A DNA stretch of 64,000 bases from Escherichia phage vB_EcoM_VR20: the sequence record NC_028894.1; one strand, written 5' to 3'. The notes beneath the pieces were generated by a model. It was not told the DNA's origin, ran no database searches, and saw nothing but the letters and a program-made list of their open reading frames with translations. Positions within the stretch are counted from its first letter, which is position 1; each line of letters starts with the position of its first letter. Below, in pieces: positions 8,238 through 57,231 of this stretch. Made by a program: the position numbers and the translations under genes.

Positions 8238-8262
8238 ATTATACAGCCATAAAATTAAAGCA
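8238..8262 (-). promoter_or_regulatory. MotA-type middle promoter of uvsY; candidate oriF-like origin element
   Basis: Minus strand GCTTTA box, 12 bp, TATAAT; T4 oriF coincides with the uvsY middle promoter. Confidence 0.45.
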
Positions 8263-22210: not shown

Positions 22211-22281
22211 TTTATTCTCCAGTTGTTTTCATTTGTTGGTACAGGTCTATAATATCATAACCTGTACCAAAGTAAACTGTT
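22211..22281 (-). promoter_or_regulatory. Early promoter with stem-loop (PeSL-like cassette)
   Basis: Minus strand GTTTAC-17-TATTAT; 8-bp stem ggtacagg/cctgtacc encloses the -10. Confidence 0.45.
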
Positions 22282-22650
22282 TTATGCGACTTTAATCCAA
22301 TTATCTAAATTTAATTCACCCTTAGCTTTCATTTTTTCAATCAAATCATCAGCAGTGGTGCGACCATTTTGATACCATGTAACATCTTCAGAATAACCAG
22401 TTTCTTCATCTTCATAGGTCTTACAACGAATCTTACCAAGAATCAAAGTTTTCAGTTCGTAGGTATCACCAGTAAAAAAGTTTGTTACCATAATTTTCCA
22501 GGAGAAGTCATCAGAAGGACCTTCTGGAGTCATGCAAGAAACGAATTCAAATTGTTCTTTATACAAGTGCCATTGCATTTCTTTAGTTTCAATGGCTTTG
22601 TAGCCGTCGTGGTCTTTACCTTTGATGTATGAGTTAAGATTGATTTTCAT
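22282..22650 (-). CDS. Hypothetical protein
   Basis: 122 aa; ATG preceded by the conserved leader repeat. Confidence 0.55.
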   Translation of the reverse strand: MKINLNSYIKGKDHDGYKAIETKEMQWHLYKEQFEFVSCMTPEGPSDDFSWKIMVTNFFTGDTYELKTLILGKIRCKTYEDEETGYSEDVTWYQNGRTTADDLIEKMKAKGELNLDNWIKVA

Positions 22651-25130: not shown

Positions 25131-25466
25131 TTACATCACCACGAGATAATTGGTTTTAATAGTTTCAACACGATATAATTCATGTCGCAATTTAGTAATG
25201 CTCTTAACATGTGTTGTAATTATACTATCACCATCGCTGAAGCGTTTTTTCTTATCGTCAAAAATCACCCCAAACATTCGCTCACCAATTTCTACAGGAG
25301 CTTCTGTGATAACAACCGCATCATAATTACTTGGGTGAATACTTTTAAACAGAGCATCATTCGCAAGCGTTACTTTGATAAATGCAGTTGTTTCTGGGTC
25401 CAACTTACGATGGTCACCTAAATCATTTTTAAGTGATTCTTTGAAAATATCCATTAAATTCATCAT
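25131..25466 (-). CDS. Hypothetical protein (cd.1 region)
   Basis: 111 aa, ATG start directly upstream of cd. Confidence 0.5.
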   Translation of the reverse strand: MMNLMDIFKESLKNDLGDHRKLDPETTAFIKVTLANDALFKSIHPSNYDAVVITEAPVEIGERMFGVIFDDKKKRFSDGDSIITTHVKSITKLRHELYRVETIKTNYLVVM

Positions 25467-26636: not shown

Positions 26637-26660
26637 ATTATAACATAAAATTTTTAAAGC
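26637..26660 (-). promoter_or_regulatory. MotA-type middle promoter (GCTTTA box, 12 bp, TATAAT)
   Basis: GCTTTAAAAATTTTATG is nearly identical to the element upstream of rnh. Confidence 0.45.
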
Positions 26661-30390: not shown

Positions 30391-31527
30391 TTATTCAGGC
30401 AGGATTACATCCGCTTGGTAGTCCACCGGGATGTAAAGTTTATGATTTTTAAGGAAAACATTATTGATTTGAGCGATGGTTTGCTCTGTTTCCTGGGGAC
30501 GTTGATAGGTGTTCATTAATACGGAGAACAAACCCGGATATGGTTTACACAACTCTTGACCTTTAATCGCAAACTCGCGTCGGTCTTTTCCCGCCAACTG
30601 TTTCTGGGCATCAAGCAACAGTCCCAGGGTATTGGACAGATAATCCAGATGTGCAATGGTAAAGGCATTAACTTTTTCACGAGCATAATCATCGCCAGTA
30701 AACATGGCAATAACATCATCTGCACCGCCTGCAACAACAACTTCAAACAGACGCTGGTTATTGTTAACAGAATCCTTTGTATGGTGTAAAGCACAATACC
30801 ATTCTGTCTTAACTTTAAATTTGCGACCATCGACCAGCTCATAGACAAAGCCTTCAATCTCTTTCATATCACGGACGTTTTCAATTGTAGTCGGGTCATA
30901 TGCTTCAACCAGGAATGGACGAAGCGCGGCATCTTTAAACAAATCCTGATAAGGGATATATTCGCCAGTTTCATTATGGCGAACGTTCAGTAAAATCAGG
31001 TCACGTTCCTGGTAAGGCAAAACAATGCGGTTGGTTGGTGCAACATATTCCATATTGCATGTATAACCAGCTTCAGTAATTTCAGTTACACGCTCACGGA
31101 AAGCTATACGGTGTTCTTGTTTGAATACCTGCAGTGCTTCTGCTGCCTGGGAGCTTTTGATTGACCCTTTGGATTTAAAAGCAATATTGGTCTGGTCCAT
31201 ATAAGTGGAGACAAGAGAGCCATCAGCCTTGGTCATGACCAGCGCAACTTCATCCATATTGATATCCATGGTCAACGGATTTTCACCCAGATTAAAGAAT
31301 TTTTCCATAGGACGAGCAGCAATGCGAACTGGACCATCGTCATCCATTTCAAACATAATACCACGGCACTCCAGTGCGTCATCAAGAAGCCAATCACTAT
31401 AGGAAGCATAGTTATAGCTAAAGATGCGGAACTTAGTTTCAAATGGAGAAACAAAATCCGTATAGAAAAACTTACCTTTATCGGATTCGGCGCAAAGCTT
31501 CATTAAGTTATCATATAATTCAATCAT
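30391..31527 (-). CDS. rnlA: RNA ligase 1
   Basis: 378 aa (T4 374); RIFSYNYASYSDWLL, ECRGIMFE and KADGSLVSTY match recalled T4 Rnl1. Confidence 0.88.
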   Translation of the reverse strand: MIELYDNLMKLCAESDKGKFFYTDFVSPFETKFRIFSYNYASYSDWLLDDALECRGIMFEMDDDGPVRIAARPMEKFFNLGENPLTMDINMDEVALVMTKADGSLVSTYMDQTNIAFKSKGSIKSSQAAEALQVFKQEHRIAFRERVTEITEAGYTCNMEYVAPTNRIVLPYQERDLILLNVRHNETGEYIPYQDLFKDAALRPFLVEAYDPTTIENVRDMKEIEGFVYELVDGRKFKVKTEWYCALHHTKDSVNNNQRLFEVVVAGGADDVIAMFTGDDYAREKVNAFTIAHLDYLSNTLGLLLDAQKQLAGKDRREFAIKGQELCKPYPGLFSVLMNTYQRPQETEQTIAQINNVFLKNHKLYIPVDYQADVILPE

Positions 31528-39358: not shown

Positions 39359-39722
39359 CTATTTGAAGGCTTTTTGTAGAAGTTCAATGATTTGGTCGAC
39401 GTTATTAGCATCTACAACACAATTAATAGAAACCGCCCCTGAAGGTGTTTTTGTATAACTGGAGTATTCACGGAAGCAATAAAACTCTTCTTCACTAAGT
39501 TCAAAATAATCATCACCCATACCATCATCATTATAGATTGCACCATTAGCACAAATTATTTCGGTTACATAATCATAGCCGTCTGCACTTGATATTGATT
39601 TAACTTCAAAACCAATCACCATTTTCTTGGATGATGTCGACCATACTAGCATTCGATGAACTAATATCAATGAAAGATTTAATACGATGTGGATTGAACT
39701 CATATTTTTTGCCAATTTCCAT
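39359..39722 (-). pseudogene. Frameshifted paralog of the 38642 gene: 38-codon frame A (39606..39722) plus 80-codon frame B (39359..39605)
   Basis: Both halves align in register with the paralog; the frames break at UGG-UUU-UGA over the A4 run at 39608..39611. Confidence 0.45.
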
Positions 39723-39803
39723 TTTTATTTCCTCAGTGGTTATCAGTAGTTGATGGAATCATTATGCACCGGGTCAAGGGACTTGTACACTACTTTTTGA
39801 AAA
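39723..39803 (-). promoter_or_regulatory. Promoter cassette, near-duplicate of the one at 57450
   Basis: TGTACA-17-CATAAT; leader CATCAACTACTGATAACCACTGAGGAAATAAAAATG. Confidence 0.5.
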
Positions 39804-39826
39804 TAAAAAAGGGACCCGAAGGTCCC
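39804..39826 (-). terminator. UUCG hairpin terminator downstream of gene 32
   Basis: A-run then gggacc-cgaa-ggtccc. Confidence 0.6.
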
Positions 39827-39832
39827 CTTATA

Positions 39833-40744
39833 TTAAAGGCCAGCCAGAAGGTCGTCAAGACCATCATCAGAAGGCTCTGGAGTGCTTGGAGCAGTCGCAG
39901 TGCGTTCAGACTTAGCAGGTTTGCTGGAAGTGAAGTCTTCCATATCTTTATCAAAATCGTCCAGGTCAGCGCCCAGTTTATCGGCTTGCGCAGCAGCTTT
40001 AGAAGCAGCACCACCGAGAGCAGCTGTACCCATTACTTTAGCGAATTTCTTCTGATTCTCTTCAAGAGATTTAAATACCAGCAATTCATTCAGGTCAGAC
40101 ATTTCGTCCCAAAGTTTTTTCTGGAATGCTTCATCATTGATGCCAGCGATTTCAGACTGGTTCATGAATTTGGAATCATCGTAGTTTTTATAGCCGGAAA
40201 CCATTTTAGATTTCAGTACGAAGTTCGCACCTTCAAAAGGACAGGTTACATCAATAGCTGTTTCGCCCATGTCAACATCGACTTCAACCATCTGGTTGAT
40301 TTTGTCCATGATTTTCTTACCAAAGCGATATTTGAATACTTGGCCTTCGTTAGACGGAACAGCAGGGTCTTTAATGACCAGGATGTTAGCCCAGTAAGAA
40401 GTATTACGCTTCAGTTTACGATATTCGGATTCGTTTGTATTGTACAGGTCATTCTTATTCATGTACGCACACACAGGGCAGTTTTCATAATCGCCGTGAG
40501 TAGAAGTACAGTTTTCAATATACCATTGACCAGCATTTTTAAAGCCGTGGTTAACGAGCTTGATGAATGGAGATGGATTTTCTTCATTCTTAGAAGGCAG
40601 GAAACGAATAACCGCAGAGCCGACGCCATCAGTATCTTTCAGTTTCCATTCTTTTTTATCGTCAGAAGAGAAACCAGCACCACCTTTCAGTGCATTAAGG
40701 GAAGCAGCCAGGTCAGCAGGGTTTTTACGTTTAAACATAGACAT
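39833..40744 (-). CDS. 32: Single-stranded DNA-binding protein gp32
   Basis: 303 aa (T4 301); strong recalled identity; zinc ligand residues and acidic C-terminus. Confidence 0.92.
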
Positions 40745-40804
40745 ATGATTTTCCTTAGATTATTTGATTTTTAGCAGTTGTTTTGATTACGTATTAATTA
40801 TACT
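40745..40804 (-). promoter_or_regulatory. Candidate gene 32 translational operator
   Basis: Hairpin cttcaa-tcact-ttgaag followed by an A/U-rich stretch before the Shine-Dalgarno, as in T4 gp32 autoregulation. Confidence 0.35.
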
Positions 40805-41473
40805 TCAAAGTGATTGAAGCGTTATTTGACAGTTTTTAACGGTCTCGATGAACAATTTACGAGCTTCAAGAGAATCTATATTTAAGATTTTCTTATAGGC
40901 ATTTAGTTTGGTCGAATACTTTTCCCAAACCAAGTCGTTAGTCTGTTCATCATGTTTATTTATAATACCTAAAAATGAATCAAGCAAACAAAACGTTTCA
41001 AATGAGATAACATTCGATTGGAGAAGTTTGAAAATATAACTTGTATTCACTTTAGTATTATACTCGAAAATCTCTTGGAGCGATTTGACTTCGACTTTCT
41101 TACTGAAGTAATAGATGTTCTTTATATCATCTTCGTATACTTGTCTAATTCTTTTAAGTCTGCCAATGTATTCTCTATAAAATATCAGAGCATCGGCATC
41201 ACTTATATCGCCTATCCATGCATCCTGGTTTGCAACCAGGTTTGACATGAATATTAACGTTAATTCTTTGAGAGTGTACTTATCGCTAAGCTTTTCGAAA
41301 AAATACTTATCGCGACGTTTTTGATAAGCACTATCGGAGATTCGCATGGTCCAGTTATATTTGATAATATCATAACGACCCGAAAAATGCTGTTTGATGG
41401 ATAAGTACAGTTGGTATACTGATTTACCATTTATATATCGGTTGTTATTTGGAGGCATGCGAATCGTAATCAT
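40805..41473 (-). CDS. 59: Helicase loader gp59
   Basis: 222 aa (T4 217); strong recalled identity (KYDIIKYNW.MR.SD.AYQKRRDKYFF). Confidence 0.88.
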   Translation of the reverse strand: MITIRMPPNNNRYINGKSVYQLYLSIKQHFSGRYDIIKYNWTMRISDSAYQKRRDKYFFEKLSDKYTLKELTLIFMSNLVANQDAWIGDISDADALIFYREYIGRLKRIRQVYEDDIKNIYYFSKKVEVKSLQEIFEYNTKVNTSYIFKLLQSNVISFETFCLLDSFLGIINKHDEQTNDLVWEKYSTKLNAYKKILNIDSLEARKLFIETVKNCQITLQSL

Positions 41474-41763
41474 AACAAAAAGTCCAGCGTATTAGTTTTC
41501 TGTGTACGAGACATACTCGGACGAAGCAGGTTATCATCATATGCTTCATTCATAATCTTATCGATGATTCCCGCAGGGATATATCGAGCAAAATTGCCTT
41601 CAGGGATTCCACGTTCTTCCAACCAGGCAGTCGCAGCTTCCAGATAAGACATTTCAGTTGACTCAACCATGGCTTCAATATCAAGCCCGTTTTGCTGCTT
41701 ACTAATCGCCCCGGAAGGCGATTCAGTTTTCTGTGTATCGAAATTAACTAAAGAGGACATCAT
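41470..41763 (-). CDS. 33: Late transcription co-activator gp33
   Basis: C-terminus ..LLRPS...KTNTLDFLL as recalled for T4 gp33; start at MMSSLVNFD with GGAG Shine-Dalgarno; start uncertain. Confidence 0.65.
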   Translation of the reverse strand: MMSSLVNFDTQKTESPSGAISKQQNGLDIEAMVESTEMSYLEAATAWLEERGIPEGNFARYIPAGIIDKIMNEAYDDNLLRPSMSRTQKTNTLDFLL

Positions 41764-42013
41764 AGAGCTCCACAGCTTCGGTTTTTTCATCTTCAAAACG
41801 TTCACGAGTGCCTTTATGATACAAGCCGAGCTGTGTATTGAACATCTTACCGTCAACGCCTAATTCAGTTTTTGCCTTATCTTTAAGGTCTTTAATTTCG
41901 TCTGCATATGCTTCCATTTTTAATTTGGTATCGGAAGCAGCTTTAATCAGCTTGGCCAGTTCAGCGCCATGAGTATCAGGGCAAAATTCAACTTTCACTT
42001 TTTTCTCTTTCAT
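41744..42013 (-). CDS. dsbA: DsbA double-stranded DNA-binding protein
   Basis: 89 aa, same as T4 DsbA; AAGG Shine-Dalgarno. Confidence 0.75.
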   Translation of the reverse strand: MKEKKVKVEFCPDTHGAELAKLIKAASDTKLKMEAYADEIKDLKDKAKTELGVDGKMFNTQLGLYHKGTRERFEDEKTEAVELYDVLFS

Positions 42014-42021
42014 AATATACC

Positions 42022-42966
42022 TTAATAAAATTCAGCAATATTTGCAGTTAGTTTAGACAGACCAGACTTAACAAAGTAAGGATAAACTTTACTTTTGGCT
42101 GGGATAACGTAGTTATTATATCGTTCTAAGATTGAAGCGGATATTTCCGTTGGGATAAAGTCCATATCAATCAACAATTGGTTTTCACAGAATCTATTAT
42201 ATTGCTCTTCTGTTAAAAGCGTTTTCAAAACGTCATGGTCGTAATAGTTGAGTGCAATTTGTTCAAGCTCAGCTGCGCGGGTTGGCGGAGTACGTTCACC
42301 TTCTTCATGAGTGTAATAAAAATCACCACGAACCTTGATGCTCGACACGTTATCTTTTTTGTCGCCTTTAACAACCTTTGTCACGCAATCCATAAGGGCA
42401 TCGCCTGATTTAGTTTTGACATATTTTTTCTGCATCGGGGACCATTGTTTCACCCCAGGGAATTTATGCAACTGCGTAAAGTCACCATCCGAAGAAACAA
42501 TCATAACCGGATGTCCGAGACCAGTGAGCAACTTCGTTAATACTGCAATATGGTCATCAGCCTCAACTTTATCCATATTCATCACGATGTAAGGCATATG
42601 TTTTTCCATTTCATCGATAATGATGTGCATAGCAGCATGTAGACCTTCCCAATCGAATTGAGACTCTTCACGAGCTTTCGCTCGGTTTTTCTTATAATAA
42701 TAAGATTTCGTCCGGCGCCAATAACCATTCTTCGAGTTATCAACACAAATAATTGGAATCGTATAACCGAGCTTCTTGAACTGCACAATATTTTTTCTGA
42801 TGGAGTTCAGAACCAGGTGACGGGTCATTGCGGTTGTTACCTTTGGATAACCAGCGTCTTTGCCGAATTCCTGGAAGGCTGCAGCCATGATGAGCTGACT
42901 AAAATCGAGTAACTGAAAACCATCTTTTTGACGGTCTTCTTCAGGGAGTAAAAAATCTAAATTCAT
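42022..42966 (-). CDS. rnh: RNase H, 5'-3' exonuclease
   Basis: 314 aa (T4 305); FEN-like acidic motifs; between dsbA and gene 34. Confidence 0.85.
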   Translation of the reverse strand: MNLDFLLPEEDRQKDGFQLLDFSQLIMAAAFQEFGKDAGYPKVTTAMTRHLVLNSIRKNIVQFKKLGYTIPIICVDNSKNGYWRRTKSYYYKKNRAKAREESQFDWEGLHAAMHIIIDEMEKHMPYIVMNMDKVEADDHIAVLTKLLTGLGHPVMIVSSDGDFTQLHKFPGVKQWSPMQKKYVKTKSGDALMDCVTKVVKGDKKDNVSSIKVRGDFYYTHEEGERTPPTRAAELEQIALNYYDHDVLKTLLTEEQYNRFCENQLLIDMDFIPTEISASILERYNNYVIPAKSKVYPYFVKSGLSKLTANIAEFY

Positions 42967-42997: not shown

Positions 42998-43021
42998 ATA
43001 TTAGCATAAAATTTTTAAAGC
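42998..43021 (-). promoter_or_regulatory. MotA-type middle promoter upstream of rnh
   Basis: Minus strand TTGCTTTAAAAATTTTATGCTAATAT, same module as at 26637. Confidence 0.4.
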
Positions 43022-43061: not shown

Positions 43062-46000
43062 ATGGCCGATATTTTAAAACCAGCATTCAGAGCAACATCC
43101 GGTCTCGATGCTGCTGGTGAGAAAGTCATTAATGTCGCGAAAGCTGATTACTCAGTTTTGTCAGACGGCGTTAACGTAGATTTCTTTATAGAAGAAAACA
43201 CAGTTCAACAATATGATGCAACGCGCGGATACAAAAAGAACTTCGCAGTTATTAATGATAACCGTATTTGGGTTGCTCAGCGTGATATTGATGCTCCAGC
43301 AGGAGCATTTACCCCTCAGTATTGGTTAGCAACCCGTACTGACCCTAAATGGGAAACTGTTGCATCTCCAACTCGTCAGCTTAATTCAGGTGAATTTATC
43401 GCAGTCGACTCAGCTGCAAGCTTTACCACATTTACATTGCCTCCGAACCCGACTGATGGTGATACCATCGTTATTAAAGATATCGGCGGCAATACTGGTT
43501 ATAATGAAATCAAAGTTCAATCGAGCAACGTGCCTGGTCAAGGTAACCAAAAAATTGTTCGTTTTGGTAATCAGTATTCAGAAGTTTTAATTACCAAACC
43601 GTTCTCTTATAATATGCTTATTTTCTCCAACCGCCTTTGGCAGTTCTGGGAAGCAGGTAACGAAGAACGCGGAATAAGAATTGAACCAAGCTCTGGTAAA
43701 TATCGAACTCAAGCATCAGATTTTATTATGCGTCATTATACGACTGCAGAAAAAATTACATTTGTTCTTCCTAAGTATGCTAACCAAGGTGATATTGTCA
43801 AATCGGTAGACATAGATGGATTAGGGCCATTATATCACCTGGATGTTGAAACGTTTGACGAGTCAAGCTCTCTGGGTAAACAGGGCCAACACAGTATGGA
43901 ATTCCGTACAACTGGTGATGGCTTCTTCGTGTATAACGCAGTTGAAAAACTGTGGGTAACCTGGGACGGTGATAACAAAACTCGTTTGCGTGTAATTCGT
44001 GACAATGTAAAATTGTTACCAAACGAAAGTATCATCGTGTTCGGTAATGATAACAACACCTCGCAGACAATTAACATTGACCTTCCAACAGGTGTTCGTC
44101 AGGGTGATGTTGTTAAGATTGCTCTGAACTATCTCCGCAAGGCACAGACGGTTAATATTAGAGCTTCGGCTACTGATAAAATTGCATCTTCTGTTCAGTT
44201 GCTTCAGTTCCCGAAACGTTCGGAATATCCGCCGGACACTGAATGGGTATTTGTTGACTCTTTGACTTTCAATGGTAATATAAGTTATACTCCGGTTATT
44301 GAATTAAGTTACATGGAAGATACGGTTAATAACATTAACTACTGGGTTGTTGCTCAGAACGTTCCGACTATTGAGCGTGTTGACTCGAAGGATGATTTGA
44401 CCCGTGCTCGTCTGGGTGTTATTGCATTAGCTAACCAGGCTCAGGCTAACGTTGACCATGAAAATAACCCTGAAAAAGAATTAGCAATTACCCCGCAGAC
44501 TTTGGCTAACCGTGTGGCTACTGAATCACGTCGTGGTATTGCACGAATTGCTAACACTGCCCAGGTGAACCAGGATACGACTTTTGCTTTCCAGGACGAC
44601 ATCATCATCTCTCCGAAAAAGTTAAACGAACGTACAGCTACAGAAACACGTCGTGGTGTCGCAGAAATCGCCACACAACAAGAAACTGATGCAGGCACTG
44701 ATGATACTACCATCATCACTCCACGCAAGCTACAAGCTCGTCAGGGCTCAGAAAGCCTATCTGGTATCGTTAAGTATGTTCCTACTACCGGGACTACTCC
44801 AGCGACTTCTAGAGCAACTATAGGTACTAACGTTTATAATAAAAATACAACTACTCTGGTAATTTCTCCGAAAGCTTTGGACCAATATAAAGCTGACCAG
44901 AACAACCAAGGTGCTGTATATCTGGCTACTCAGTCAGAAGTTAACGCGGGGGCAACAAATACAGGATTCAGTAACTCGGCAGTGACTCCTGAAACATTAG
45001 GTGCCCGCAGAGCAACAGATTCAAACCATGGTTTAATCGAGATTGCAACTCAAGCAGAAGTTAATACAGGAACCGATTATACCAGAGCTGTGACTCCTAA
45101 AACGTTGAATGACCGTAAAGCAACAGAATCATTATCCGGCATAGCCGAGATTGCTACGCAATCAGAATTTGATAGTGGTACTGATGATACTCGTATTGCA
45201 ACGCCATTAAAAATTAAAACTAGACTGAATGATACTGCTCGTACTTCTGTTATTGCAGCAAGTGGTTTAGTAGAAACAGGGACGCTCTGGGACCATTATA
45301 CGCTGAATATTCTTGAAGCAAATGAGACTCAACGTGGCACCGCAAGACTGGCTACTCAACTTGAAGTTAATACTGGTACTGACGATAAAACAATCGTTAC
45401 TCCGCTTAAGTTGATGTCGAAAAAAGCCACAGAAGGCACCGAAGGTATTGTTCGCATCGCTACTCGTGCAGAAACTATCGCAGGAACAAGTTCAATCCTG
45501 GCTGTTTCTCCGGTTAGTCTGAAATGGATTGCACAGTCCGAACCAACATGGGCAGCAACCACGACGACCCGCGGCTTTGCTAAGATGTCTGAAGGCGCAA
45601 TTACTTTTGTCGGTAATGCAACTGCAGGTTCGACCCAGGCTCTTGACCTGTACGAGAAAAATAGCTATGCTATCTCTCCGTATGAGTTAAACAAAACCCT
45701 TGGTAACTTCCTGCCGCGTTTGGCTAAAGCAGCAGACTCGGATAAACTGGATAACCTGGATAGCACGCAGTTCATTCGTCGTGATATTGACCAAATCGTT
45801 GAAGGTACATTAACCCTTAGAAAGAACATAAGAGTTGATGGTCAGCTGGCGACTGGTGGTACCGGTGAATTTGGCGGCTCGTTGGCGGCTAACTCCACAT
45901 TTACTATACGCAACACAGGAACTCCGACCCGTATCGTTTTCGAAAAAGGTCCTGCCTCCGGTGCAAACCCGGTTCAGTCAATGAGCATCCGTGTATGGGG

Positions 46001-53656: not shown

Positions 53657-54310
53657 ATGGAACCAAAAGTAGGAATCTCAATACCCGACCTACTTTTTGG
53701 ACTTCTTGATAGAATTTTTAAAGATAATGCAACCGGGAAAGTTGTCTTTTCCCGGGTACTAGTTATTGTTCTATTATTTTTAATGGCGGTAATCTGGTAT
53801 AAAGGTGATGCAATTTTAGATGCGTATAGGGATGCTTCATATGCCTCGTACACAGAAATGATAAGGCAAGACCAGGATAACAGATTTAAAATTGCAGCTA
53901 TCGAGCAAATCCAGATAGTTCACTCATCAAGCGGAGCAGACTTTACAGCGATATATTCCTTTAGACCAACTAACCTTAACTACTTCGTGGATATGGTGGG
54001 GTACGAGGGGATATTACCTGAATCAGTTGACGAAAAAAATTTGGGTGGGTTTCCAATAGATAAGACTTCAGCGGAATATTTGGCGGGGGTTAATGGTAAT
54101 TATTTTGAATCCGGCACGGAATCTGTATTCTTACCAACAAAGAAAAAAAGCAGCTTCGAATATATGTTCAGCTGCCCATTCTTTAATTTGGAAAACGTTT
54201 ACGCAGGCACAGTCTCGTTGTACTGGTATAAGCAAAAACCCGACCTTAGTTTTGATAGGCTTTCTGCTATGTGTGGGCAAGCAGGTCGTACGCTCGGGCG
54301 TACACGTTAG
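53657..54310 (+). CDS. t: Holin T
   Basis: 217 aa (T4 218); single N-terminal transmembrane helix; LFG.LDR.FKDNATGKV matches recalled T4 T. Confidence 0.88.
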   Translation: MEPKVGISIPDLLFGLLDRIFKDNATGKVVFSRVLVIVLLFLMAVIWYKGDAILDAYRDASYASYTEMIRQDQDNRFKIAAIEQIQIVHSSSGADFTAIYSFRPTNLNYFVDMVGYEGILPESVDEKNLGGFPIDKTSAEYLAGVNGNYFESGTESVFLPTKKKSSFEYMFSCPFFNLENVYAGTVSLYWYKQKPDLSFDRLSAMCGQAGRTLGRTR

Positions 54311-54582
54311 AATCCGGAGGTATACATCATCAGATATCGGTGTATATCTTCGAATCCTTCGTTAAATTGTTCAATGATTTGTTCAATTTCATCTTCAGAT
54401 AAACTTTTAAACAACTTGTTAAACGATACATTGTTTAACTCATTACCATTCTCATTCCTTAATCCCAACTCATTCAAAAACGCGATAAACACATCACGCT
54501 TCATCGTAATATCTTCCCGGTCGGTTTTAATCAAAATAGATGTAACGGTAACAATTTCAGAAACGATTTCAAATTTAGTCAT
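54307..54582 (-). CDS. asiA: Anti-sigma-70 protein AsiA
   Basis: 91 aa (T4 90); ..VTSILIK..REDI....FIAFLNE.G and FNEGFE..HRYL.MYT match recalled T4 AsiA. Confidence 0.82.
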   Translation of the reverse strand: MTKFEIVSEIVTVTSILIKTDREDITMKRDVFIAFLNELGLRNENGNELNNVSFNKLFKSLSEDEIEQIIEQFNEGFEDIHRYLMMYTSGF

Positions 54583-56622: not shown

Positions 56623-57231
56623 TCACTTTAAGATGTTAATAACATGTTGAATGTTTTCAGTTGACATAACGTTGTCAATGTAGGTATTCAATCCACCCAC
56701 TTTAACGCTAAATCCCACGTCTGTAAACTGTTTTACTATCTTTTGTTCAGTATTATACGCATGCACGCGAATCTGACCATCACGACGAACATCAATCTGT
56801 TTTAATGTCTTGACACGCTTGAACTTCACAATCAGATTGCTGCGGTCTTCTGAAATGCTCTTAAAGTCAATACCAATAGACAACAATTGCTCTTTGATAT
56901 ATTCTGCAGTCGCTTCCATTTCATCAGTCACACCGCGTTTTGTTCTTGTCTTCTTCACTTCCAGAAGGTCGGGATTATTTTCATTCGCCCAAAGTTCAGC
57001 TGCATCCAGAATAAGGTCAACACCTTTTTCTGTAACCATCAAACCATCACCAGAAGCTTCAACATAGTTGTTATTCAACAATGTCTGTACGCTATCAATT
57101 GATGTGTTCTGCTGGTCTAAAACAACCTCTGGACTCACAAAGTTGTTTTTGTATACAAACACCAGAGCATTGACATCAGTCTCATGCAGCGCGTTCTGGG
57201 AGCATTTAACGATATAATTTAACTTGTTCAC
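56623..57231 (-). CDS. motA: Middle transcription activator MotA
   Basis: 202 aa (T4 211); matches recalled T4 MotA (..ASGDGL..TEKG.DLI..AAELWA.EN.P.LL). Confidence 0.85.
   Translation of the reverse strand: MNKLNYIVKCSQNALHETDVNALVFVYKNNFVSPEVVLDQQNTSIDSVQTLLNNNYVEASGDGLMVTEKGVDLILDAAELWANENNPDLLEVKKTRTKRGVTDEMEATAEYIKEQLLSIGIDFKSISEDRSNLIVKFKRVKTLKQIDVRRDGQIRVHAYNTEQKIVKQFTDVGFSVKVGGLNTYIDNVMSTENIQHVINILK

Follow-up and report, generated by a model that had tools for sequence, protein, structure and literature searches.

A structure-free gene 32 leader without a T4-type pseudoknot behind a candidate MotA/AsiA middle promoter in a Gaprivervirus phage

The gene 59-gene 32 junction

The locus described here lies in a 64-kb stretch of phage DNA (the window, i.e., everything that was analysed) that belongs to the genus Gaprivervirus, whose members are SP18/VR7-like T-even phages. 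The 1.8 kb around it are 95 to 99% identical to the corresponding DNA of about 30 phages of this genus from Escherichia, Shigella, and Yersinia, among them CJ20, SP18, VR7, and VR25/26. Pfam searches confirmed the T4 gene order rnh-dsbA-33-59-32-frd.2 on the minus strand, with rnh at 42966 to 42022, dsbA at 42013 to 41744, gene 33 at 41856 to 41470, gene 59 for the helicase loader at 41473 to 40805 (T4_Gp59_N/C), and gene 32 for the single-stranded DNA-binding protein of 303 amino acids at 40744 to 39833 (gp32, E = 8.7e-51). The spacer between the last two genes occupies exactly positions 40745 to 40804, from the gene 59 stop TGA (40807 to 40805) to the gene 32 ATG (40744). These boundaries, together with the Pfam calls for gp32 and gp59, bear out an earlier note on this DNA, which had taken the element for the gene 32 leader. 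Read on the mRNA strand, the junction is ...AAAAACUGUCAAAUAACGCUUCAAUCACUUUGAAGUAUAAUUAAUACGUAAUCAAAACAACUGCUAAAAAUCAAAUAAUCUAAGGAAAAUCAUAUG.

The gp32 encoded here carries the N-terminal FKR(K) motif associated with cooperativity and the His/Cys3 zinc ligands H66, C79, C89, and C92, none of which varies in the alignment. Two ATGs lie in frame at the start of gene 32 (MSMFKRK; 40744 to 40742 and 40738 to 40736); the 7-nt spacing from the Shine-Dalgarno (SD) sequence suits the first, as in T4, and the second is the start annotated in the SP18 and VR7 records. Four nucleotides past the gene 32 stop lies a strong intrinsic terminator (39808 to 39829, minus strand), a 9-bp stem with 5 G-C pairs and then a T-run; a terminator right behind gene 32 has been reported for most T4-like genomes. 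On the upstream side, gp59 ends in ...NCQITLQSL*, and its last six codons (ITLQSL) are the MotA box and promoter spacer described below, read as protein. The gp59 of JS98-like and CC31-size relatives ends in ...(N/S)CK(F/Y)*. To judge from these sequences, the ITLQSL tail seems to be an extension by read-through and no conserved portion of the protein.

The junction differs in content among close relatives. In the window, genes 59 and 32 are direct neighbours, with no cassette inserted. In phages of the SP18 type, segG separates genes 59 and 32 and ends in codons that run through the same sequence. VR7 and TH15 have a different seg-like ORF that ends right ahead of TATAAT and is apparently frameshifted in VR7. 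The three contexts become homologous again from the MotA box or from TATAATTAATACG onwards (window 40803 to 40830; L002 1760 to 1830; L016 and L017 880 to 960). The 59-32 junction is a hot spot for the gain and loss of homing-endonuclease genes.

A candidate middle promoter ahead of gene 32

A perfect -10 hexamer, TATAAT (40797 to 40802, minus strand), is found in all Gaprivervirus leaders examined. In the window, it is preceded on the same strand by a 12-bp spacer, atcactttgaag (40803 to 40814), and by a candidate MotA box, taaCGCTTCA (40815 to 40824), which overlaps the last codons of gene 59. In T4 middle promoters, an excellent -10 is separated by 12+/-1 bp from a MotA box, (a/t)(a/t)(a/t)TGCTTtA, whose centre is near -30 (PMC2988021; Hinton 2010). 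The candidate box matches this consensus at 9 of 10 positions. The exception, a C before GCTT where T4 prefers T, counts against a MotA-type promoter; the same C is present in 4 of the 10 minus-strand sites of the form GCTTYA-N11-13-TANNNT, taaCGCTTCA included.

To gauge the pattern, its occurrences were counted in the window. GCTTYA-N11-13-TATAAT was found 7 times against 0.09 expected, a number reached in 0 of 100 shuffles, and 6 of the 7 sites are on the minus strand; a version with a looser -10 gave 13 sites against 4.5 expected. An ORF begins 47 to 101 nt past four of the six strict minus-strand sites, and one of the four is the counterpart of T4 PdsbA. The other strong MotA-type candidates are located at 42115 to 42138, 42998 to 43021, 26637 to 26660, 25219 to 25243, 45295 to 45319, and 8238 to 8261 on the minus strand and at 31497 to 31519 on the plus strand; that at 42115 to 42138 is about 100 nt ahead of dsbA, where T4 has PdsbA.

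Promoters of the same layout were seen in relatives. VR7 and TH15 keep CGCTTTA-N12-TATAAT although their spacer is unrelated and another ORF lies upstream, the JS98-like phages have TGCTTCA-N12-TAATAT straight after the gene 59 stop, and L021 has TGCTTAA-N12-TATAAT. In VR7/TH15 and the JS98-like phages, the 12-nt length of the spacer is retained while its sequence differs. Both phage factors that such promoters require are encoded in the window on the minus strand: the middle-promoter activator gene motA at 56623 to 57231, which scored above the cut-off for both Pfam MotA_activ and MotCF and is rather diverged from these models (E = 6e-12 and 5e-9), a point against the promoter, and asiA, for the co-activator and anti-sigma factor, at 54307 to 54582 (Pfam AsiA, E = 7.9e-21). 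We consider it probable that the bases in which the earlier note saw a hairpin form, with TATAAT, a MotA/AsiA-dependent middle promoter for gene 32, whose activity we infer from its layout. Given sigma-70 -10 geometry, transcription would begin about 7 nt past the -10, in a zone at 40789 to 40792 (minus strand); a start near G40790 would leave a leader of about 46 nt that does not include the hairpin.

Other promoter types were considered for the site. The site has a poor -35 and for that reason is not called by the sigma-70 -35/-10 scan; an early-type promoter was accordingly dropped and a MotA-type one preferred. Extended to 40795, the -10 becomes TATAATTA, a 7/8 match to the T4 late box; a late promoter at this place was rejected as well. 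The canonical late box itself, TATAAATA, has an exact match inside gene 59, 220 nt ahead of gene 32 (40957 to 40964, minus strand). It was discarded as a conserved late promoter of gene 32 because VR25/26, VR7, and the JS98-like phages do not have it there. SP18 and T4 have a late box inside segG instead, at -137 and -158, respectively.

The structure-free leader and the search for a pseudoknot

The gene 32 operator of T4 is composed of a pseudoknot of about 28 nt and an unstructured tract of >40 nt that contains UUAAA/UAAA repeats and the ribosome-binding site (RBS), and both parts are reported to be essential (PMC535899, PMC3014915). In the window, the 57 nt at 40745 to 40801 (minus strand) are an A-rich, structure-free leader that overlaps the RBS and is a candidate cooperative gp32-binding region or translation enhancer. 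Read from 40801 to 40745, it has 54% A, 79% A+U, and 7% G, a minimum free energy (MFE) of 0.0, and a mean P(unpaired) of 0.89. Only 0.2% of the 57-nt windows on the minus strand are equally unstructured and 0.3% are equally A+U-rich; loci as unstructured as the leader number about 15 in the 64 kb, and the leader is the most A-rich unstructured stretch of its strand. The earlier note had described about 35 nt of unstructured A/U-rich RNA before the SD. The tract is real, but it is longer than stated, with 46 nt from the hairpin to the SD and 57 nt to the AUG.

With these 57 nt, the leader exceeds the >40 nt of unstructured A+U-rich RNA of a T4-type operator, and it extends over the SD, AAGGA (40752 to 40756, minus strand; 7 nt ahead of the first ATG at 40744 to 40742), up to the AUG at 40744, so that the RBS is overlapped as in that operator. 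T4-style UUAAA/UAAA repeats were looked for in the leader, and it holds 0 UUAAA, 1 UAAA, and 1 UUAA, along with six UAA triplets; the T4 leader has four UUAA(A). The 3' part of the leader does correspond to the cooperative-binding half of the T4 operator, in agreement with the earlier note, in that it is A-rich and structure-free and has CAACUG(C/U)UAA and an AAGGA 7 nt from the AUG. Such RNA is not peculiar to this phage. Over positions -45 to +3 of about 60 distinct gene 32 leaders, the median MFE was -0.2 and the median A content 50%, and structure-free A-rich RNA ahead of gene 32 is a family-wide trait.

Within the leader, a conserved core, UAAUCAAAACAACUGCUAAAAAUC (40766 to 40789, minus strand), includes CAACUG at 40780 to 40775. 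The core is identical to the JS98-like leader at 22 of 25 positions (88%), compared with 51% between the gene 32 sequences of the two phages at 4-fold degenerate sites. CAACTG[CT]TAA occurs a single time in the window. Across 61 distinct gene 32 leaders, AACUG was found in 72 copies versus 4.1 expected (about 17-fold), and the element (C)AACUG(U/C)UAA is present in 42 of the 61, with or without a pseudoknot. Among the entries L018 to L091 of our panel, (A)AACUG(U/C) recurs one to four times per leader in most T4-like lineages (in the window at 40775 to 40780 and 40828 to 40836, minus strand), and some phages have it within the 3'-terminal part of gene 59, in codons for ..TVKNC... We found no mention of this recurrent motif in the reviews consulted. 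A near-identical 25-nt copy of the 5' part of the leader, UAUAAUUAAUACGUAAUCAAAACA, occurs in Serratia phage Muldoon at 22274 to 22298 (L099 351 to 375). It was rejected as a homolog: the match is A/T-rich, has E = 0.06 to 0.7, lies between two glucosyltransferase genes of Muldoon-like phages, and is probably due to chance. An Rfam search of 39500 to 42000 at a permissive threshold returned chance snoRNA/sRNA matches only, with nothing on the leader.

To look for the other half of a T4-type operator, we collected the gene 32 upstream regions of T4, of the congeners of the window, and of 80 IMG/VR contigs, which gave about 60 distinct leaders, and scanned them with a purpose-written search for H-type pseudoknots under compact and permissive loop limits, with shuffles as the control. 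The structure sought was the T4-type gp32 nucleation site, an H-type pseudoknot of about 28 nt at the 5' edge of the operator with an S1 of 4 to 5 bp, a 1-nt loop, and an S2 of 7 bp. The compact scan recovered the T4 pseudoknot, UGCC-a-GCUAUGA-GGUA-aagug-UCAUAGC, and the T2-type structure, and overall 18 of the 60 distinct leaders proved to have a pseudoknot, whose stem energies range from -16 to -21 (p <= 0.01 versus shuffles). It returned nothing for the window, SP18, VR7, TH15, the JS98-like phages, and several other groups. In the window, the best candidate of the permissive scan had -11.6 against a shuffle mean of -11.2, a value equalled by 38% of the shuffles, and none of the candidates used the reported hairpin. 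Ten distinct members of the T4-type pseudoknot family were then aligned; 97% of the cells pair, versus 76% in shuffled alignments and <=55% in slid ones, and 7 of the 11 pairs have changes on both sides, i.e., covariation. The covariance model (R1) built from this 10-member alignment gave 46 to 61 bits for its members and 21 to 28 bits for two untrained extended-loop variants. On the window leader, it gave 7.8 bits (E = 4.6 in 6 kb), and this match covered the CAACUGCUAA tail only.

The earlier note had proposed the arrangement that gp32 uses in T4 and had made the proposal depend on pseudoknot-forming potential in the leader. Neither scan, nor the covariance model, finds an operator with a pseudoknot; the structure prediction that the note had suggested as a check thus goes against it by its own measure, and the strict T4-type reading is refuted. 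Several individual candidates were also dismissed. A pseudoknot on the reported hairpin has 0 candidates, as its 5-nt loop UCACU has no AGUGA partner. An all-A/U pseudoknot in the leader, GUAU-a-AUUA-AUAC-g-UAAU, consists of A-U stems of 4 bp with a crossing loop of 1 nt and is not returned by the scans. For 40803 to 40781 as a decayed pseudoknot, a gapped T4/L021 alignment is suggestive, but the sequence is A/T-rich and no pairing survives, which leaves the idea as speculation. A covariance-model match at 39735 to 39780 (minus strand), between the gene 32 terminator and frd.2, reached 13.8 bits (E = 0.1) and was taken as chance.

Some leaders of the panel have pseudoknots of another form. L047/L048, L049/L052, and L059 contain extended H-type pseudoknots at about -100 to -32, with stems of 7 to 8 bp and loops of 4 to 13 nt, whose stem energy of about -21 was reached by 0 of 100 shuffles. 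Their S2, GGUGUAC/GUACAUC, is similar to that of the compact T4-type pseudoknots, and they have a MotA-type promoter immediately ahead. These leaders are a third operator architecture.

Readings of the junction and comparison with known systems

Taken as a whole, the junction probably holds a middle promoter followed by either a pseudoknot-less operator or a strong translation start site. With moderate confidence, we favour the former, a pseudoknot-less gene 32 operator behind a MotA/AsiA middle promoter, for which promoter activity, transcription start, gp32 binding, and repression are what we infer from sequence features. The MotA box (40824 to 40815), the 12-bp spacer, and the -10 (40802 to 40797) would yield a gene 32 transcript from near G40790, whose A-rich, G-poor, structure-free leader of 46 to 57 nt would present the CAACUGCUAA core and the SD. 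Once free gp32 exceeds the available single-stranded DNA, it would coat the unstructured leader RNA cooperatively, and the RBS would be hidden. Two points count against the operator. The pseudoknot is reported to be essential for repression in T4 and RB69, so the leader may lack autoregulation (PMC535899), and an unstructured A-rich leader is equally expected of a merely strong translation start.

The main rival, which we hold to be possible though rather unlikely, dispenses with autoregulation altogether and takes the leader for nothing but a strong translation initiation region, S1-friendly and with an open RBS, that serves an abundant protein from a middle promoter. It can point to the missing pseudoknot, the near lack of UUAAA and UAAA, and the roughly 15 other loci of the window that are equally unstructured; moreover, the literature reports no test of autoregulation in pseudoknot-less T4 relatives (PMC535899, PMC3014915). 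It sits less well with a leader that is the most A-rich unstructured stretch of its strand, with a core conserved across genera well above neutral sites, and with an AACUG motif that is specific to gene 32 leaders. Furthermore, because gp32 binds any long unstructured RNA cooperatively (the von Hippel model), some gp32 feedback would be hard to avoid. Autoregulation by gp32 in this phage is best described as plausible on sequence grounds.

The remaining rivals assign a role to the reported hairpin. The earlier note had placed an inverted repeat, cttcaa-tcact-ttgaag, in the gene 32 leader. The repeat exists, but it lies at 40819 to 40803 (minus strand), and only 2 to 3 of its bases fall inside 40745 to 40804. 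As a weak RNA hairpin, GCUUCAA-ucacu-UUGAAGU, it has 7 pairs including a terminal G-U (40802 to 40820, minus strand) and thus spans the final five gene 59 codons as well as the TGA stop. Its 5' arm is the MotA box; its loop and 3' arm, with the TGA, lie in the promoter spacer. The predicted stability is modest, with -3.9 kcal/mol for 6 bp and -5.9 kcal/mol for 7 bp. Perfect 6-bp hairpins occur on the minus strand once per 347 nt, compared with once per about 540 nt in shuffles, so this one is not beyond chance, and the 116-nt region around it folds no better than shuffles (z = -0.11). VR7 and TH15 do not have the hairpin, though the rest of the leader is kept there, and the JS98-like phages have no inverted repeat over the promoter. 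The single difference in the repeat in VR25/26, CTT to CTC, is silent in gene 59 and disrupts the closing pair, which argues against selection on the stem, and no covarying pairs were found in the hairpin. Most likely, the reported hairpin represents a chance complementarity of the MotA-box core (GCTTCAA) with the end of the spacer (TTGAAGT), and its annotation is better corrected to that of a middle promoter.

Since the hairpin is upstream of the predicted start near G40790, it would be absent from the promoter-proximal mRNA and occur only in read-through RNA. RNA from upstream promoters or from the TATAAATA at 40964 to 40957 would carry it, and a role for the hairpin is possible there. It might replace the T4 pseudoknot as a nucleation or boundary site from which gp32 spreads cooperatively along the leader to the RBS. 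No other stable structure is predicted in the region, and the hairpin would be present in read-through and possible late transcripts; its position, -76 to -58, is near that of the T4 pseudoknot (-67 to -40), and a simple hairpin stands before an A-rich tract in some distant T4-like leaders (L087 and L060). We nevertheless judge such nucleation improbable, for a stem that is this weak, of chance frequency, unable to form a pseudoknot, and upstream of the predicted proximal start, that is lost or weakened in the relatives named above, and that shows no covariation.

RNase E prefers RAUUW, and the AAUUA at 40799 to 40795, after the hairpin, resembles this motif. The hairpin and the adjoining A/U-rich UAUAAUUAAU could accordingly be a processing or stability signal by which a polycistronic 33-59-32 RNA gives rise to a stable gene 32 message. 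In T4, RNase E cuts all gene 32 transcripts at -71, just 5' of the operator, and this cut is conserved in five relatives (PMC3014915). However, a motif of the AAUUA type has very little information in A/U-rich sequence and the hairpin is not conserved in the genus, and we give this role the same low credence as nucleation. Finally, an intrinsic terminator or attenuator for gene 59, to which the location of the hairpin at the very end of that gene might point, is effectively refuted by anatomy, the stem having 2 G-C pairs only and no U-tract behind it; it was not reported by the terminator scan, and T4 gene 32 depends on read-through from upstream promoters.

Returning to the pseudoknot-less operator, a bolder generalization, which we regard as unlikely, would hold that gp32 is autoregulated without a pseudoknot in Gaprivervirus, JS98-like, and other T4-like lineages, that (C)AACUG(U/C)UAA is a sequence-specific nucleation site, and that the pseudoknot is an accessory that enters and leaves the 59-32 junction along with promoter and segG cassettes. 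The operator of T4 gene 32 is the textbook example of how a protein can recognize its own mRNA among other single-stranded nucleic acids, a specificity that is credited above all to the pseudoknot. Close T-even relatives with a conserved gp32, which keep the unstructured half and the CAACUG core and have no pseudoknot, thus provide a natural test system: Gaprivervirus and its neighbours would test whether the pseudoknot is really required or whether an unstructured tract or a short motif is enough. The components are all of known kinds, namely, gene 32 leaders, middle promoters, and pseudoknot-less T4 relatives, and the region is an ordinary, slightly variant one. In the literature consulted on T4 relatives, we found no description of a MotA promoter fused to a pseudoknot-less leader with a CAACUG core in T-even-type phages.

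The operator of T4, T2, and RB69, which McPheeters in 1988 and Shamoo in 1993 are said to have described, reportedly consists of a 5' H-type pseudoknot and an unstructured UUAAA/UAAA tract. The window resembles it in the same gene and position over the RBS, in a long structure-free A+U-rich tract, in a promoter directly upstream, in CAACUG(U/C)UAA at about -35 (after the pseudoknot in T4), and in the AAGGA 7 nt from the AUG. It differs in that the window has no pseudoknot, UUAAA repeats are almost absent, the tract measures 57 versus about 39 nt, and the only nearby stem is a non-conserved 6- to 7-bp hairpin in gene 59. RB69 has a similar pseudoknot, and a clone lacking the pseudoknot elements was built to test whether they are required (Borjac-Natour 2004, PMC535899). 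As for the promoter, T4 middle promoters (P32 and PdsbA) likewise have a MotA box 12 bp from an excellent -10, with motA and asiA encoded and the motif enriched. T4 P32 differs in that it starts about 204 nt upstream, inside segG, so that its RNA includes the pseudoknot, whereas the promoter in the window abuts the leader and has C for T before GCTT.

RB49 reportedly has no pseudoknot (Desplats 2002, as cited in PMC535899 and PMC3014915). The leader of the RB49-like group (Krischvirus) that we compared has a sigma-70 promoter, TTGACA-17-TATAAT, followed by about 37 nt without a pseudoknot. It is in line with the literature and is a precedent for the architecture of the window, with which it shares a promoter directly upstream and a short unstructured leader. 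Unlike the Krischvirus leader, which has a -35/-10 promoter and no CAACUG core, the window combines a MotA-type promoter with the core. The JS98-like phages (Dhakavirus) differ from the window in having no inverted repeat over the promoter and a longer leader with extra CUGUUAA repeats, and they share with it the gene 59 stop, the MotA box-N12--10 layout, and a pseudoknot-less, unstructured leader with UACAACUGCUAAAAUC.
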